From Candidatus Bathyarchaeota archaeon (lineage in GTDB: Archaea > Thermoproteota > Bathyarchaeia > Bathyarchaeales > Bathycorpusculaceae): a DNA stretch of 64,000 nt. The stretch lies in assembly GCA_963717465.1 (NCBI GenBank), contig OY970340.1, forward strand, positions 224,001-288,000, written 5' to 3'. Under the pieces are notes generated by a model that saw nothing but the letters and a program-made list of their open reading frames with translations, ran no database searches and was not told the DNA's origin. Made by a program: the position numbers and the translations under genes. Shown here one piece after another: positions 12,771-22,943 of this stretch; within the stretch, counting starts at the first letter, position 1; the number at the start of each line of letters is the position of its first letter.

Positions 12771-14868
12771 TTATTTGCTTTTGTTGAACTTAAACTTAGC
12801 CAGCTTCAGGGTCGCTGAATTTGTTACAACTGTCAGGCTGCTTATCGCCATGGCTCCAGCCGCGTAAACAGGATTAAGCAATCCTAAGGCAGCAATCGGA
12901 ATCATTACGATGTTGTAACCGAACGCCCAAAACAAATTTGAGTTAATCTTTTGCATAGTTCTTTTACTAAGTTCAATGGCTAAAGCGACATCTTCCAAAT
13001 CATCTTTAATGAGCACAATGCCGCCTGCTTCCTTGGCGATGTCAGTTCCGCTACCAATTGCGATCCCAATGTCAGCTTGAGCTAATGCTGGAGCATCGTT
13101 AATGCCGTCACCAACCATCGCCACAGTCTTGCCCTCAGCTTGCAGCTGCTTGATGACGTCGACTTTTTGCCAAGGCAAGACGTTTGCTATAACCTTTTCA
13201 ATCCCTAGTTGCTTAGCAATCGCTTGTGCAGTTTTCTGATTGTCGCCCGTGAGCATAGCCACTTCAAGATTCATGCTTTTCAACTGGTTCATTGCGGTTG
13301 CTGCGTTTTCTTTCGGGGTATCCATAGCAGCAATTAAACCTACCGCTTGACCGTCAACTGCCAACATCATAACAGTTTTGCCGTTATCCTGCAAAATGGA
13401 CAGGTCATTTTCTAAAACTTCAACGTTGATCTTTTGCTCTTGCATGAGAGCGCGGTTTCCAAGCAGCACTTTTTTGCCGTTCACAGTACACTTTACTCCT
13501 CTGCCGGGCAAGGCTTCAAAGTTGTTGGTCGTGAAAAGCTTCACTTGCTGTTCATTTGCTTTCTTTGTGATGGCGTCTGCCAGCGGATGCTCTGAGCTTT
13601 GTTCCACGGAGCCTGCAAACCGCAATACATCATTTTCGCTGAAGCCTTCGTATGGTTTAATGTCGGTTACTGCGGGTTCGCCTTTAGTTAGTGTTCCAGT
13701 TTTATCGAAAACTACAGTGGTTAGTTTTCTTGCGCGTCCACGTATTCCCCGCTGCGCAGCAAAACTCCATATTCCGCGCCTTTGCCGACACCCGCTAAAA
13801 TGGCAGTGGGAGTTGCAATACCCATTGCACAAGGACAAGAAATTAACAAGACAGCCAACAATGCCAGGAAAGCGGTTGTGAAGCCTCTTGCAAAAAACCA
13901 GTAAGTAAACGAAACAGCGGCGACTGTGAAGATTATTGGTACGAACCATGAAACTATTTTATCAGCGAACTTTTGCACGGGTGCATTGCTGGCTTGTGCT
14001 TCTTCCACTAAATGCACAATTTGCGATAAAGCTGTTTCATCGCCTACTTTGGTAGCTTTAACTGTTAAGGCGCCAGTTTTATTGATGGTTCCGCCGATAA
14101 CAGGGCTGCCTATGGTTTTTTCCACGGGGATGCTTTCGCCGGTGAGCAGCTTTTCATCAACTGACGAGTAGCCCTCAGTTATTTGTCCATCGGTTGGGAT
14201 TTTTTCGCCAGGCTTTACAAGCATGACGATACCAACTTGCACTTCATCGATTGGCACATTGACTTCTTGTCCATCTTTTATAACTCGAGCCATAGTAGGT
14301 TGCAGCTCAAGCAGGGCGCGAATTGAAGCAACTGAACGGCGACGTATGAGCTCTTCGATATATTTACCCAACAAGACAAACGCTAGAATTCCAATCGATA
14401 CTTCAAGATAGCCCGTCCCTGAAGCAAAACGTGGAAAAAAGCTGCTAGTGCCCCATAAGACCAGCCTGCAAGTACACCGGTAGCCACAAGAACATCCATG
14501 TTGACATTGTGATTTCTAAGTGATAGGTAAGCGCCTTTAAGAATGTTAAAGCCAGCATAAAAAACGATTGGAATTGAAATTATAAATATAATAAAATTGT
14601 AAGCTGTTAGTTGCCCGACTAACTCCAAAGCATTTAAAGCTATCAAAAAGCCGAACGCTGAGGCAATTTTTAATCCAGCGGCTGCTATAGCCGCAAGCAG
14701 AGTTAAAGTAACTTTTCTTTGCATCGCTTTTAATTCGCGTTCTGGTGCAGTGTAAACATCAGCGCATTGTTGGCTACAAAAATAGTACGTTCGATCGCCT
14801 ATTTTGCGGCTTATAGCGGTCTCAGTATCCACATCCATGCCGCATACAGGGTCTCGAGCTTTAGCCAT
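12771..14868 (-). CDS. copA: Heavy-metal (Cu-type P1B) P-type ATPase with N-terminal YHS domain; two frameshifts
   Basis: [29 protein letters not shown] and YN motifs across three ORFs. Confidence 0.88.
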
Positions 14869-14969: not shown

Positions 14970-14977
14970 TTATTTCG
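14970..14977. repeat. Target-site duplication TTATTTCG (left copy; right copy at 19316-19323)
   Basis: Identical 8-mers abut both terminal inverted repeats. Confidence 0.92.
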
Positions 14978-14982
14978 GGTTC

Positions 14983-15060
14983 TGTTAACTTATTGATGGA
15001 TGGGTTTTTCTGTTAATTGTCGTGGGATAATTTTTCTCCATGTTAACTTTCGTGGGATAA
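14983..15060 (+). repeat. Left subterminal repeat array (TGTTAAnnnTCGTGGGATAA)
   Basis: Copies at 14983 (degenerate, part of the TIR), 15011-15030 and 15041-15060. Confidence 0.9.
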
Positions 15061-15158
15061 ACTAAAGAGCCATTGTAATCAATAGATTAGATTAATATCT
15101 TAATATGAGAAGCCTCAAATAAATATAAAGCAAATAATTGACGTAAGGTTGATTAAAA

Positions 15159-15488
15159 CTGAACCAAGAAGAAGCAATACTTAAAATTTTTACTGATGCT
15201 GAAATAGTTAAACTAAAACAGCATTTAGGTCAAGGTCATTTCATCGATTGCCTTCTTATGCTTGCTTTAAACTGCAATCAATGGGGCACAGCAAAAGAGT
15301 TCGCAGATAAAAACAATTTACCTCTGAGTTTTTATGCTTATAGAGCAAGAATGAAAGAGATTGAAAATCTCGGATATGCAACAAGCAAACCGATTGACCC
15401 TTTAAAAAAATCGTATCAAATAACTGAATCAGGAAAAAAAATCGTTAATTCTCTATTGTTATTTTTTGAGCAATTAAAAAAAGAGTAA
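15159..15488 (+). CDS. Winged-helix DNA-binding protein (start uncertain, about 15149-15258)
   Basis: Frame open from 15153; RARMKEIENLGY...SYQITESGKKI wHTH-type pattern. Confidence 0.7.
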   Translation: MNQEEAILKIFTDAEIVKLKQHLGQGHFIDCLLMLALNCNQWGTAKEFADKNNLPLSFYAYRARMKEIENLGYATSKPIDPLKKSYQITESGKKIVNSLLLFFEQLKKE

Positions 15489-15495
15489 AATAAAA

Positions 15496-16632
15496 TTAAC
15501 TTGATTTTCTGCTTGCATTTTCGATTAGAGTTTTCCACTTGTTTTCTCCTTGAATTTGGATACCGCAAGCTTCGGCGGGAGTTTTTCCTTCTAATGCTTC
15601 ATGGGGTCTGATATAGTTGTGGTAAAGTTGGTAGCCTTTCAAAACTGCCGTTGCATCCATCTTTAAACCCCTCATTGTCTTTTCTCTATCTCTAATTTCA
15701 CCGTTCATGCGTTCCATTTTATTGTTGTTTCTATCGCCTCTAAGTTGGATATGAGCAATATGCTCGGTTCTTGTCTCTTTACATTGTGTCCAAAATTCCT
15801 TTTTGTAAGCATCATGATAAGCTGGAAGACCATCAGTTATGAAGGTCATAGGCTTTTTGCCCATTAATTCTTTAGACATTTTTAGCAAGTTTCTTGCATC
15901 ATGTTTGTCTTTGGTTTCTGCGACTTCTTGGGCAATCCAGAACCTTGTCTCATCATCCATCATAGCAAACAAATATTTCATGTTACCGTTGATTTTGACA
16001 TATAGTTCATCGGCTCTCCAAGTGTCTGAAACATTTGGCTTTATTTTTTCAAGATATTCAGTCATTAAAGCCGTGTACTTAGTTACCCACTTTAAAATTG
16101 ATACGTGACTAATCGTTATTCCTTGAAGCTTTAAGAATTTCTGAACATTTCTAAGACTCTCTCCTGTGAAATATAACTGCATAGCGGAAGTGATAACTTG
16201 CGGCGCAACCCTTGTTTTTTCAAACCCTAAGTTTAATGTAAAGTGTTTTTTGCAATCTTGGCAGAGATAAATTTGGAGATTGCCTTTCTTGTTGTGTCTT
16301 AAGCCGTCTTTGACTATGTTTGATGAACCACATATTTGGCAGTTTTGAAGGTTCAATTCAGGGATAACTTTGTTAACTGCTACTTCAGTTCTCAGTTTAA
16401 TTGAAAGTTCAACAGCAAAAATATGTTTGCATTTTACGTGTCGGTAGGTGTGGTCTGGGCATTCACAGTGCCATTCACTGTCAACCTGATAAATCGCATA
16501 TTCGCCATTTCCCGATTGACTTTTGACTGTGTAAAAGTTCTCTTCAACACGGTTAACTTGACACTCTTTGGCTTTAGCTATTACTAAACCTCTTTCTTCA
16601 CGGATTTGTTCAAGTTTTTCAAGGCTCATCAT
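15496..16632 (-). CDS. IS6-family DDE transposase with N-terminal SWIM finger and Zn ribbon
   Basis: CECPDH...CKH (SWIM), CQICG...CQDC, WRADE / ITDG / NNKMER triad, YHNYIRPH. Confidence 0.92.
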   Translation of the reverse strand: MMSLEKLEQIREERGLVIAKAKECQVNRVEENFYTVKSQSGNGEYAIYQVDSEWHCECPDHTYRHVKCKHIFAVELSIKLRTEVAVNKVIPELNLQNCQICGSSNIVKDGLRHNKKGNLQIYLCQDCKKHFTLNLGFEKTRVAPQVITSAMQLYFTGESLRNVQKFLKLQGITISHVSILKWVTKYTALMTEYLEKIKPNVSDTWRADELYVKINGNMKYLFAMMDDETRFWIAQEVAETKDKHDARNLLKMSKELMGKKPMTFITDGLPAYHDAYKKEFWTQCKETRTEHIAHIQLRGDRNNNKMERMNGEIRDREKTMRGLKMDATAVLKGYQLYHNYIRPHEALEGKTPAEACGIQIQGENKWKTLIENASRKSS

Positions 16633-16635
16633 GTG

Positions 16636-16700
16636 CTTATACCTGTATTGGTATAAGTAGCAACCAAGTATTTAAAGTTATACCATTAAGGGTATAACTT
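16636..16700. promoter_or_regulatory. Twin palindromic operators TTATACC-N6-GGTATAA in the divergent transposase/MTase promoter
   Basis: CTTATACC-tgtatt-GGTATAAG (16636-16657) and AAGTTATACC-attaag-GGTATAACTT (16675-16700) around TATA-like boxes. Confidence 0.8.
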
Positions 16701-16730
16701 ATATACATCTTCTGCTATAATCATAAAATC

Positions 16731-17876
16731 ATGCCAATATCTTACAAAGAAGTAAGCAACACCAAATACATCTATTTTTCTTATTATGATAACGAGCAAA
16801 GAAAAAAAATAGAAATTTACTGTGGAACGGCAAACGACCCTACAGCTATAGAAAAAGCTGAAGCACTTGAAAGCGAACATTTAAAGAAACAAATTTCAAA
16901 TCTCCAACTGCAACTAAAAGAGTACGATACTGGCACAATCAAGAAATCAAGAAAACGAAAGTCCAAAACTGTCAAGCAATCAATACAAGATAATATCGAA
17001 ATGCAAGAATATTTGAGAAATGCAACGCTCTATGACCCTGAAGTTTACTATAAAACAAGCGAACATATGGACGCAGTTCAGGATAATTCAATTCAATTAA
17101 TCGTGACATCGCCGCCATACAACGTAGGAAAAGAATACATTGCTTATGATGATAAAAAAGAGCTTCAAGTTTATCTCGATTTCCTTAACAATGTATGGAT
17201 AGAATGTAAAAAGAAACTATGTAAAGGTGGTCGTATAGCAGTGAACATCGCTGATACTTGGAGAACACCTTACATTCCGTTGCATTGCTACATCACTAAA
17301 CAGCTTGTAGATTTAGGCTTCTTGATGCGTGGTGTTGTCTTTTGGGATAAAGGTGCAAGCGTTGGCATTTCAACAGCATGGGGTTCGTGGCGGTCTGCCT
17401 CTAACCCATGTTTACGAGATGTCGGTGAGTACATACTTATTTTCGCAAAAGATGATTTCAAACTAGAATCAGAAACTAAAATATCAACTATCACAGCAGA
17501 CCAATTCACAACATATACAAAGTCACTATGGACATTTTCAACGGTTCAAAAACCCAAAGATAGTGACCATCCCGCACCATTTCCAGATGAATTACCCAAA
17601 CGTTTGATTTTGCTTTATACCTTTTTAGGTGGAACAGTTCTCGACCCCTTTCTCGGTTCGGGAACAACATGCAAAGTTGCTAAAGCTCTTGGCAGAAAAA
17701 GTATCGGTTACGAGATTGACGAAAGTTATAAGCCTGAGATTGAACTGAAAATTAATAGTGTGAAGTCAATCGGGTTATCACTTGACGCTTTCACTGCAAA
17801 CGGCAAAAAAACACTAAATCAAGATTTGCCTGCTATACCTATTTCCTTAAGGTCAAGTACGAACGATTCAAGCTGA
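16731..17876 (+). CDS. Beta-class amino-DNA methyltransferase (likely N4-cytosine) with an extra N-terminal domain
   Basis: VTSPPY...HPAPFP...LDPFLGSGTT motif order. Confidence 0.92.
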   Translation: MPISYKEVSNTKYIYFSYYDNEQRKKIEIYCGTANDPTAIEKAEALESEHLKKQISNLQLQLKEYDTGTIKKSRKRKSKTVKQSIQDNIEMQEYLRNATLYDPEVYYKTSEHMDAVQDNSIQLIVTSPPYNVGKEYIAYDDKKELQVYLDFLNNVWIECKKKLCKGGRIAVNIADTWRTPYIPLHCYITKQLVDLGFLMRGVVFWDKGASVGISTAWGSWRSASNPCLRDVGEYILIFAKDDFKLESETKISTITADQFTTYTKSLWTFSTVQKPKDSDHPAPFPDELPKRLILLYTFLGGTVLDPFLGSGTTCKVAKALGRKSIGYEIDESYKPEIELKINSVKSIGLSLDAFTANGKKTLNQDLPAIPISLRSSTNDSS

Positions 17877-18514
17877 CTTTTCTTTGTAACATCATAAATT
17901 GCTTTTACAGTAGCATTTCTATAGCCATGCAAGTGGTTTGGTATAGCATTAGTTACGATAAAGAAGTGACCTTTTGGGAAACGTTCATTCCATTTTTTAG
18001 CGTTTGCAAAAGCTTTTTTCTCTGTGTCTGAGCGCATCATTCCAGGTCTGTCTAGATGTGAGTGTGTTCCATCAGGATTTATAATATAGTCTGGTGACCC
18101 CTTTGCTTCTATCACCACATCAGTTTTTATCTCTAAATCATAAAGCCTAGTTACGTCAGAAGTAGGTCGTGCCGTTATCCCAAAATTCTTATTTAGAAGT
18201 AACCAAAATGCCCATTGGAATTCTTCACCAACATATGTGGCACGAGCTTGAAAAGTGGCTACTTCGTAAACATATCTTTCTCCGCATACTGGACAGGTAT
18301 CGGGTTTATCGCCCCACCCATATGAAAATTTTTTTAGTTCCATACATCTAACACAAACCCAACATTTATACAATGCCATAGCTTTGCAAATATTGTTGAA
18401 GCAACTTGTAAAATATCGTGAAAGTGAATCGTTTGTCATACCATTTTTTTCGATAATATCATAATTTTGTTTCGCTACTGTCAAGTATGGTGTAGCTGAT
18501 TCAGGAACTGACAT
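17819..18514 (-). CDS. Putative type II restriction endonuclease (PD-(D/E)XK, Zn ribbon)
   Basis: CVRC...CPVC, GEEF, YDLE...IEAKGS; convergent with and overlapping the MTase. Confidence 0.7.
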   Translation of the reverse strand: MSVPESATPYLTVAKQNYDIIEKNGMTNDSLSRYFTSCFNNICKAMALYKCWVCVRCMELKKFSYGWGDKPDTCPVCGERYVYEVATFQARATYVGEEFQWAFWLLLNKNFGITARPTSDVTRLYDLEIKTDVVIEAKGSPDYIINPDGTHSHLDRPGMMRSDTEKKAFANAKKWNERFPKGHFFIVTNAIPNHLHGYRNATVKAIYDVTKKSQLESFVLDLKEIGIAGKS

Positions 18515-18626
18515 AATTCACTTATTAATGACCTATTGATATTTAAAACTAATCAAATAAAAACAAACGTATAAACATAAGAAACGATAAATAATCAATT
18601 AAATGTAGTTTGGCGAGAGGGTTATC

Positions 18627-18908
18627 TTGTCAGTTTACAAAAGAAAACTTAGACAGAGTGAAGCTGAAAGATATTTTATTTATGTTGAAGCATCAGTTCG
18701 TAAAATGTTTCCTAAACCACTCGTAAAATTTTCCGTTTTAGTTAATGGTAAATCATTCGATGCTAGGATTGACGCTAGATGGCGTATTTGGGCTAACTAT
18801 TTCTGGAATTCACTATCATCATTCAAAGAGGGTGATATGGTCACTATTGAAAAAACTGCCAATCGTGCTTTTACTGTTTCGGTGAATCCTGCTGAGAATG
18901 TTCACTAG
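18627..18908 (+). CDS. Small protein, putative B3/EcoRII-N-like DNA-binding pseudobarrel (paralog 1)
   Basis: KLRQSE..RYFIYV....RKMFP...GKSF...RIW...GDMVTIEK; paralogous to 18871-19176. Confidence 0.6.
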   Translation: MSVYKRKLRQSEAERYFIYVEASVRKMFPKPLVKFSVLVNGKSFDARIDARWRIWANYFWNSLSSFKEGDMVTIEKTANRAFTVSVNPAENVH

Positions 18909-19176
18909 CTAACCCAAGTCTATTTTTGTCTCTTTTTGTAAAAATTACGACTTGGTAAGGCTTCATGTTAATGCAATCCTTTATCATATTGGCATTTATC
19001 CATATTCTTCCATAAGCGTCTAAGTTAGCTTGAAATTCTTTTTTACCAATTATTATCGTAAATTTTTCATTTAAATCAGGAAACATCGAACGGGCAGTAT
19101 CGACAACGTATATGTACCCTCGCGATGATTCCGAGGTTGAAAGTACCTTCCGATAATATTCTAGCATCTTTCTCAA
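18871..19176 (-). CDS. Small protein, putative B3/EcoRII-N-like DNA-binding pseudobarrel (paralog 2)
   Basis: KVLSTSE..RGYIYV....RSMFP...KKEF...RIW; ATG at 19167. Confidence 0.6.
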   Translation of the reverse strand: MRKMLEYYRKVLSTSESSRGYIYVVDTARSMFPDLNEKFTIIIGKKEFQANLDAYGRIWINANMIKDCINMKPYQVVIFTKRDKNRLGLASEHSQQDSPKQ

Positions 19177-19220
19177 GTATTTAACAAAACTAAAATATTA
19201 AATTATTTCATCAAACCCAA

Positions 19221-19310
19221 TTATCCCACGATTGTTAACAGTTAAATCAGGCTATAGTAGCCTATCCCACGACCTTTAACATGAACCCCAAATCCCATGA
19301 CAAGTTAACA
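19221..19310 (-). repeat. Right subterminal repeat array
   Basis: Minus-strand TGTTAACAATCGTGGGATAA (19221-19240), TGTTAAAGGTCGTGGGATAG (19262-19281), TGTTAACTTGTCATGGGATT (19291-19310). Confidence 0.9.
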
Positions 19311-19518
19311 GAACCTTATTTCGGGGCAAAAGCCAAAAATGAAATGAGTAACAGCAAAAAAATTAAACTAAAAACCTGTAATGAGCAAATGCAGAAAAGC
19401 AACAGCTAATTTCACGATTGGTTCCATTTAGAATTACCCCTGCTTAGTGAGTTGCTAAAGCATTTAATTACATGCCTAATGATTGGAATTCAGGCGATTT
19501 TTCTCAGGAATAAAGCCG

Positions 19519-20987: not shown

Positions 20988-22943
20988 GTGAAAAAGCAGC
21001 AGAAATTTGACTTTCCTACAACAGAAATCATATTACCGATGGTAACCAAACCAAAGCCTTCTGAGAATAAACGCTGCCTGCACAATGCGAAAGCGCTCAA
21101 AGCCAGAAAGGCCAAACTAGAAATAGATGAAGGAGAAGCAAAATTCAGCTATTTTTTTGAAAAAATGTTAAACGGTATTGCTTATTGTAAAATAATCTTT
21201 AAGGACGATAAACCAGTTGACTTTATCTATATTAAAGTTAACAATGCTTTTGAAAAACTCACTGGACTAAAAAAAGCTCATGTCGTGGGAAAGAAAGTAA
21301 CCGAAGCAATCCCGGGGATTAAACAAGATCATCCTGAATTATTTGAAATATACGGCAGAGTCGCCAAAACAGGAAAAGAAGAGGACTTTGAATTAGACTT
21401 CAAGCCCCTAAAAATTTGGATACATGTTTTGGTTTACAGTCCTAAAAAGGATTATTTTATTGCTGTATTTGAGAATATTACTGAACGCAAGAAAGCCGAA
21501 GAAGCATTGAGAAGTAGCTCTGAACGGTTCATGACGTTAGCCAATTCTTTACCCGAAATAGTTTTCGAAATAGACTTGAATGGGAGAACAACTTACATTA
21601 ATCAAACGGCATATGAAACTATTGGTTATACGAAAGAAGACTTCAACAAAGGTCGCTTTTAACCAAGATTTTCTTGTTCCAGAAAGCATAGAAAAAGCAA
21701 AAACAAACTTTACAAACGCAATAGCAAAATCCGCAACTATAATCGATGAGTACATCTTGAAGAAAAAGGATGGCAGCACATTTAACGCAATAATAAAAGC
21801 AGCCCCAATTAAATCGGGCGACAAGACCATAGGACTAAGAGGAATTGTTACCGATATCACTGAACAGAAAAAAATAACCGAAACTCTTGTCTTCCAAAGC
21901 CAATTGCTTGAAGCTGTCGGACAGGCATTAATTGCAGTCGATAAGAATAGGATCATTCGTTACTGGAATAGAGGAGCAGAAAATCTTTACGGATACACAG
22001 CGGAGGAAGCTCTTGGAAAAAGTATTGATGAGGTTTTTCCGACCGAACATTCTGAAGATTTAGTGGATGAGATTTCTAGTCGCTTGGTTTCTGGTGAAAG
22101 CTGGGTCAACGAAACTCAAGTAAAAAGCCGCAATGGAAAAATGGTGCCCGTAATCGTTACTCGCCATCCTGTTCTTAACAAAGCAAGAGAGTTCATCGGC
22201 GCGATAAGTGTCTATACCGATATAACTGATCAAAAAAGCATGCAGAATGAAATTGCGAAGTACGCAGCCGATTTTAAGGAAAGTTCAGAAAAAGTCAAGG
22301 ACTTAAATGAAAAACTCCGAGTTATCGGCGGCTTAACAAGACACGATGTTCGAAACAAACTGGCTGTTTTCAACGGGTATGTGTACTTATTAAGGAAGAA
22401 AATTGGCGATACCCAAGCAGCGCTACAATATTTAACCAAAATGGATGAAGCCTCAAATCAGATGCTTGCTATTTTAGATTTTGAAAAAGTTTACGAACAA
22501 GTGGGCTCGGAACAACTCGTTTTTGTTAATGTTGGTAAATTTTTTGCTGAGGCATGTGGGCTTATATCTGATTTTAAAGGCATAAATCAAAAATGTGAAT
22601 GTGATGGGTTAGAAGTGTTAGCCGACTCATTGTTACGTCAGCTATTTATAATCTGATGGATAACACATTGAAATACGGTGAGAAAACCACTTTAATCAGG
22701 CTTTATTATAAGGAAAATGAAAACGGGATTTCGCTCGTTTATGAGGACAACGGTGTAGGAATGACAGAGGCAGTTAGGGCACATCTTTTTGAGAAGGGTT
22801 TTGGTAAAGGAACTGGATTTGGCCTTTATATGACAAAGCGCATAATTGACGCTTACGGCTGGACCATAGAAGAAAATGGTGAATTAGGAGCTTGTGCTCG
22901 ATTCACAATGAAAATACCACAAAGCAAATTCAAACTGAAATAG
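20988..22943 (+). CDS. Multi-PAS sensor histidine kinase (two frameshifts)
   Basis: PAS repeats, RHDVRN H-box, NTLKYG, EDNGVG, GFGKGTGFGL. Confidence 0.88.

Follow-up and report, generated by a model that had tools for sequence, protein, structure and literature searches.

Convergent genes for two small predicted B3-fold proteins, carried with a restriction–modification pair on an archaeal IS6-type transposon, as candidate portable regulators

The window, that is, the whole 64,000-nucleotide stretch of bathyarchaeal DNA analyzed here, contains two small open reading frames, ORF A (18627..18908, plus strand) and ORF B (18871..19167, minus strand), that run toward each other and share 38 bp tail-to-tail (18871–18908), as the preliminary description had read from the sequence. 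ORF A encodes 93 aa from a TTG start with an SD-like GAGAGGG immediately 5′, the N-terminus of its relatives being M-S-V-Y. For ORF B, the 98-aa ATG start is preferred over an alternative TTG at 19176 (101 aa; 18871–19176, minus strand), because it agrees with the starts of the orthologues; the public gene call of the same genome (P0159) likewise starts at this ATG (19167) and gives a 98-aa protein. The previously given length range of 93–101 aa is thus retained for A, but its upper value should probably be replaced by 98 aa for B. Paralogy of the two proteins, claimed before on the basis of a shared motif, is evident by BLASTP (57 aa aligned, 40% identity, E 2e-14), and the motif is seen in the alignment.

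Divergent from ORF A, as also described before, and separated from it by 112 bp, lies the gene for a putative Type II restriction endonuclease (17819..18514, minus strand; 231 aa) with a PD-(D/E)XK-like motif and a four-cysteine insert, which is common to this protein and L069:1489-2163 and absent from four more distant aligned homologs. Modeling predicts a PspGI/Cfr10I/EcoRII-C-like fold, and the protein is of the kind (PspGI/EcoRII-C or MvaI type) that constitutes the catalytic part of Type IIE enzymes. The nuclease gene is convergent, with an overlap of 58 bp, with that of an N4/N6 DNA methyltransferase (16731..17876, plus strand; 381 aa, SPPY motif; PF01555, E 5.8e-45; PADLOC MTase_II, E 3.4e-84), whose 100-aa N-terminal extension (16731–17030), giving no Pfam match and no second copy in the genome, is possibly another DNA-binding cap.

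The whole block of restriction–modification (RM) and B3 genes is cargo of an intact IS6-type element of 4,338 bp (14978–19315); the earlier placement of A and B beside the RM genes was correct in that the RM pair adjoins, but had missed the single transposon that encloses the block. The element is bounded by the terminal inverted repeat GGTTCTGTTAACTT (14978..14991, plus strand) and its perfect 14-bp match (19302..19315, minus strand), with subterminal repeats at 15012 and 15042 on the one side and at 19222 and 19263 on the other, these four being all exact copies of the subterminal repeat in the genome. The target duplication TTATTTCG stands directly before the first terminal repeat (14970–14977) and directly after the second (19316–19323). 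The IS6-family DDE transposase (15496..16632, minus strand; 378 aa) has a SWIM and zinc-ribbon N-terminus and matches PF13610 (E 2.9e-17) and the NCBIfam IS6 model NF033587 (131.8 bits, above the cut-off of 125). A 76-aa ORF (15258..15488, plus strand), winged-helix-like by eye, with no match in Pfam or NCBIfam and one 52% homolog at another place in the genome, is a candidate regulator of the element. Between the divergent starts of the transposase and methyltransferase genes are two palindromic boxes, TTATACC-N6-GGTATAA (16637–16656 and 16678–16697), 41 bp apart and with no further exact copy anywhere in the 3.05-Mb genome. In the same place upstream of other transposase copies, palindromic boxes of different sequence are seen by eye, and the boxes at 16637–16697 are likely to be operators of an element regulator. 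The element is like IS6/IS26 in its transposase type and in having terminal inverted repeats of 14 bp and a target duplication of 8 bp, whereas simple IS6 elements (~700–1,760 bp) hold the transposase alone and this one carries five passenger ORFs. According to the available text of PMC7986276, members of the family have 14-bp repeats and 8-bp duplications and are mostly 700–890 bp long, the longest being ~1,760 bp, with one passenger-carrying member, ISDsp3, listed there.

Same-ended elements with their own 8-bp duplications occur elsewhere in the genome, at C1:2805162-2812638 (7.5 kb; by eye, EVE-like, Type I/IIG-like RM, and toxin–antitoxin-like cargo) and at C1:30324-31007 (684 bp; a single small ORF besides the remnant of a transposase), and a solo element end at C1:2317115 is flanked by two TFB-like genes. 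In two loci from the survey described below (L112 and L114), an IS6-type transposase is likewise divergent from an RM operon whose last gene is B3, and no matching element ends were found in these two. On either side of the element in the window, a heavy-metal P-type ATPase spread over three frames (12771–14868) and a fragmented PAS/histidine-kinase gene, found as several parts (20988–22943), represent pseudogenes or assembly errors.

The preliminary description had proposed a B3 pseudobarrel fold for both proteins, with AbrB named as an example of a fold that would speak against it. The predicted structure of A (pLDDT 92.3) consists of strands at residues 2–7, 17–19, 34–39, 42–48, 53–55, 71–76, and 81–87 with helices at 10–15 and 22–27, and fits the B3 pseudobarrel core of seven strands with interspersed helices as defined in the available text of PMC12065111. 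In a structural search with this model, the best 13 matches were all B3 domains, with AbrB-type barrels ranking below them, and the model aligns over its full length with solved B3 domains, ahead of other folds. The proposal is hence borne out for A, which is predicted to have the B3 fold, and for B the same fold would follow from family membership (E 3.5e-23 against the family profile). Identity with AbrB/MazE antitoxins was considered and rejected, A being a 90-residue single-chain barrel rather than a ~50-residue swapped hairpin, and no toxin gene being adjacent; AbrB similarity is confined to a half-domain, in that the C-terminal half of A/B-type barrels aligns with AbrB antitoxins.

None of the Pfam, NCBIfam, and PADLOC models matches A or B, and PF02362 (B3) and PF09217 (EcoRII-N) gave no match at E ≤ 1 for A, B, or nine seed members; the Atlas returns EcoRII-N clusters at 0.83–0.84, which we take as a lead only. 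The family is unnamed and mainly archaeal, with at least 282 clusters, and 129 of 153 of its proteins are 80–119 aa long. In a FastTree phylogeny (102 rows, 91 columns), A and B fall into separate clades of five rows each, with supports of 97 and 100, respectively. Both proteins are basic, with conserved E12, R15, D49, R53, and K76, and this basic character together with the modeled B3 fold suggests that they bind DNA; B3 domains do so in the major groove, by their N- and C-arms. In the A model, the C-arm hairpin (residues 42–55) seems short next to the arms of BfiI, NgoAVII, and EcoRII, which comprise 21–33 residues in the available text of PMC4267654, and this could mean low specificity.

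The same convergent pair is found at a metagenome locus, L075, with identities of 59% (A) and 52% (B). Relative to this pair, pN is 0.22 for A and 0.33 for B against a saturated pS of 0.77, and, judged from this comparison, both genes are under purifying selection. The L075 proteins are 87 and 90 aa long, and their stop codons overlap by 2 nt; since this overlap is so short and both L075 proteins end earlier, the 38-bp overlap in the window is likely to be derived, the extra C-terminal tails seemingly reflecting stop-codon drift rather than a functional feature. On the B side of the L075 pair lie a ribbon-helix-helix-like ORF (by eye) and then an N4/N6 methyltransferase different from that of the present element; the pair sits at the other flank of the methyltransferase as compared with this element, and the gene upstream of A is no nuclease homolog. 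Upstream of the L075 A gene, two divergent ORFs enclose CA-rich and GT-rich tracts in inverted orientation (L075:608-813). Further pairs are probable, as deduced from matching contig sizes only: P0163 (A-type) and P0015 (B-type) each have a record on a single contig of 2,036 bp, with a common source, and the paralogues P0009 and P0014 each on four contigs, all ≤4,124 bp; no matching partner was found for the other A- and B-type proteins listed. The convergent A/B pair is a conserved unit while its neighbors change.

Family members were detected in 8 of 401, 43 of 401, 19 of 401, and 23 of 201 genomes in overlapping samples that included the genome of the window. At 14 of 18 loci with stand-alone B3 genes outside the window, a DNA methyltransferase gene confirmed by Pfam is found within 1.2 kb, and at eight of these within 80 bp; for comparison, the sequence within 2 kb of the eight PF01555/PF00145 matches in the genome of the window makes up ~1.2% of that genome. 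Individual loci are not independent, and grouping by kinship leaves nine contexts with a methyltransferase and four without. The 18 loci are those left after setting aside the fusions, a subfamily with a CxC..HxH insert, four AbrB-like loci, L006 (which stops inside the match), and about ten further matches; no RM gene is nearby at four of them (L101, L107, and the fragments L113 and L116). Nuclease partners of the free copies include LlaMI, MvaI/BcnI, MjaI, and BglII types and unassigned ones. At L108–L112, a conserved free B3 gene is located right behind C5 methyltransferases (two with LlaMI nucleases) or an MvaI/BcnI nuclease, so that a UbaLAI-like system in split form is best sought among these loci. 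Broken copies also occur (L105, split; L114, truncated; L113, a fragment). These neighborhoods, together with the fusions considered next, bear out the expectation that homologs would be tied to methyltransferases or nucleases.

The CxC..HxH subfamily accounts for 26 of the 153 proteins and is common in one family of the class; no RM gene was noticed by eye in the eight loci examined out of 24. Its insert, a possible zinc site, lies in the C-arm region (L007 and L019–L042, at about 1480–1810 in each), its members are present in most sampled genomes of that family, often beside a metallo-beta-lactamase-like gene, and one (P0112) is fused to a MOSC domain. By eye, L013:1279-2268 (G000:C1 near 378700), in the same genome, has a BfiI/NgoAVII-like layout with a PLD-like nuclease, a probable C-terminal B3, a Vsr-like gene, and a C5 methyltransferase.

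B3 is fused to the N-terminus of 21 N4/N6 Type II methyltransferases (fusion loci L052, L055, L058, L059, L061, L065, L066, L079–L096, and L100), the nuclease partners of which are of BsaWI (5), ThaI (3), HNH (3), MvaI (2), and PLD (1) types, unassigned (5), or not visible (2). Other fusions, among 19 long representatives, are to Mrr-like, McrB-like AAA, NOV_C, and MOSC domains. In the methyltransferase fusions, the methyltransferase tree largely tracks the nuclease partner, whereas the B3 tree does not: identity is 50% in B3 and 34% in the methyltransferase part for the 148 pairs with different partners, as against 55% and 78% for the 23 pairs with the same partner, and the two identities are uncorrelated (Spearman −0.02; 210 pairs, which are not independent of one another). 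A single B3 clade (support 100/99) caps methyltransferases from four separate regions of their tree, and in one fusion clade an upstream promoter segment travels with B3; by eye, conservation upstream of the 21 fusions is only TATA- and SD-like. In the fusions, the B3 cap has hence been grafted onto incoming methyltransferases regardless of their target, which is at odds with a role in target recognition there. The fused B3 domains belong to a subclade different from A and B, so the extension of this argument to the free pair may fail.

We tentatively favor, with a confidence somewhat short of even, the view that A and B regulate RM genes as optional, portable DNA-binding proteins and do not choose the cut site, because a small basic domain that is found free beside many unrelated RM pairs and also fused to methyltransferases is distributed like the C proteins and fused repressors of bacterial RM systems. 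In the predicted mechanism, A would bind within or close to the promoter region lying between its own gene and the divergent nuclease gene, and would thereby lower or postpone nuclease expression; B, as a diverged second copy, would recognize another site or serve as a partner. The control would presumably be transcriptional and come into play upon entry of the element into a new host, after transposition, and the function of A and B would then be independent of the RM target site. The regions upstream of the orthologous A and B genes, in which only two orthologous pairs can be compared, showed no shared motif above 12 shuffles, and no operator for A or B was found in the upstream regions examined. 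The regulator option of the preliminary description is, tentatively, a better fit than its subunit option. The ribbon-helix-helix-like gene of L075 or the winged-helix-like ORF of this element could instead be the regulator. Counting against this function are also the solved prokaryotic B3 domains among the structural matches, all of which are target readers of nucleases, the fusions to Mrr-, McrB-, and NOV_C-type proteins, the four free copies that have no RM gene, and the seemingly RM-unlinked CxC..HxH subfamily. A bolder form of the regulatory view, which we regard as doubtful, is that Archaea have a B3 transcription-factor family of their own, in which free and methyltransferase-fused B3 proteins are RM controllers without a helix-turn-helix, A and B form a switch of two parts by which the nuclease is timed following a jump, and the minimal barrels are living AbrB–B3 intermediates and a prokaryotic precedent for B3 regulation in plants.

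The other function suggested at the outset, in which the two proteins would belong to this RM system as subunits for specificity or as effectors, now seems unlikely. A split Type IIE enzyme, in which the recognition site would be bound in a second copy by A, B, or both, and these, as separate effectors, would stimulate the nuclease or tether it in the manner of the fused EcoRII-N and UbaLAI-N, is kept in play by the PspGI/EcoRII-C-like prediction for the neighboring nuclease. However, none of six nuclease homologs has a B3 gene near it (loci extending ~1.5 kb to either side), including a 45% identical one with no B3 match on its entire 6.55-kb contig; A and the nuclease are not co-transcribed; the L075 pair adjoins a methyltransferase on its B side and no nuclease homolog upstream of A; and the fused copies are shuffled across specificities. 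Moreover, competition with the nuclease would be anticipated if an untethered B3 protein were bound at the target.

That A and B are a two-gene module of their own, such as a sensor of virus DNA or another regulator, which merely shares mobile defense elements with RM genes, is also improbable in our estimation. The persistence of the pair amid changing neighbors (in the window, at L075, and probably as P0163 with P0015), the mixed defense cargo of the IS6-type elements in this genome, and the use of B3 domains as sensors in the Menshen system, as given in the available text of PMC12065111, would suit such a module, but the operon-tight spacing to methyltransferases and the repeated fusions point to a functional tie across the family, and no effector gene accompanies the pair.

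As the strongest tie of the family is to methyltransferases, both in the spacing of the linked free genes and in the N-terminal fusions, one may also imagine that a free B3 protein binds unmethylated host DNA, at target sites or generally, and protects the chromosome or aids the methyltransferase until methylation has caught up after transposition, as small basic proteins of possibly low specificity might do. We consider this quite improbable: a site-specific shield requires B3 to track target specificity, which it does not in the fusions, general coating would protect invading DNA too, and no precedent was found in the parts of the literature available. The proposal that A and B are functionless, decaying leftovers of B3–nuclease or B3–methyltransferase fusions, to which the broken copies and the drifted C-termini of A and B might be attributed, is scarcely tenable and already largely refuted by conservation, in view of the uniform lengths in the family, a pN that in both genes is much lower than the saturated pS, and the old, well-supported A and B clades.

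The regulatory role favored here for A and B is worth comparing with known systems. In the available parts of the papers concerned, prokaryotic B3 domains are described only as fused readers of nucleases and defense ATPases, namely those of EcoRII, BfiI, NgoAVII, UbaLAI, LlaJI, and Menshen NsnA (PMC12065111, PMC6563490, PMC4267654, PMC7986276, PMC5766183, PMC12707154, PMC7680126), whereas B3 here either stands alone as a protein or caps methyltransferases in an exchangeable way; no free or methyltransferase-fused archaeal B3 protein was found in the literature searched. As compared with LlaJI.R1-N (6c5d), BfiI-C (3zi5), UbaLAI-N (5o63), R.NgoAVII-C (4rd5), and EcoRII-N (3hqf), A and B are complete genes in their own right (~90 aa) with 10–15% identity, and the methyltransferase fusion seen in their family is not described for the B3 domains of restriction enzymes in those texts. 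The effector and catalytic domains of the Type IIE enzymes EcoRII and UbaLAI are in one polypeptide, whereas B3 and nuclease are here separate, divergent genes. The plant B3 domains (FUS3, 6j9b; ARF1, 4ldx; RAV1, 1wid; VRN1, 4i1k) show 9–18% identity with A and B, which are archaeal and set in an RM and transposon context, and the whole A chain fits B3 far better than the swapped-hairpin AbrB/SpoVT/MazE proteins (MraZ, 1n0e; PHS018, 2glw). These minimal 90-residue scaffolds may be useful for the study of DNA recognition and possibly link AbrB barrels, the B3 domains of restriction enzymes, and plant B3 factors.

The closest functional parallels are the C proteins and the fused repressor domains of M.Ecl18kI, M.SsoII, and M.EcoRII, which, in the available text of PMC12707154, are small DNA-binding domains, free or methyltransferase-fused, with many RM partners; the B3 family likewise stands free beside Type II RM genes or is fused to the methyltransferase, with varied partners. 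However, C proteins are helix-turn-helix dimers, whereas A and B are predicted to be β-barrels, and C genes usually lie upstream of the nuclease gene and share a transcript with it, whereas A is divergent, B is distal, and the placement within the family is variable. B3 is also a swappable defense module in Menshen, where PS-B3-1, PS-B3-2, and EcoRII-N are N-terminal sensors of NsnA (PMC12065111, available text); these are fused, whereas A and B are free, and on this comparison by description the Menshen domains may overlap with the present family. Among the systems compared, the new features here are the conserved convergent pair, the intact transposon setting next to a PspGI-like nuclease, and the B3 domains shuffled across methyltransferases. 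The family is a candidate for the control of archaeal RM genes upon entry into a new host, and one intact transposon here holds an RM pair and both B3 genes together.
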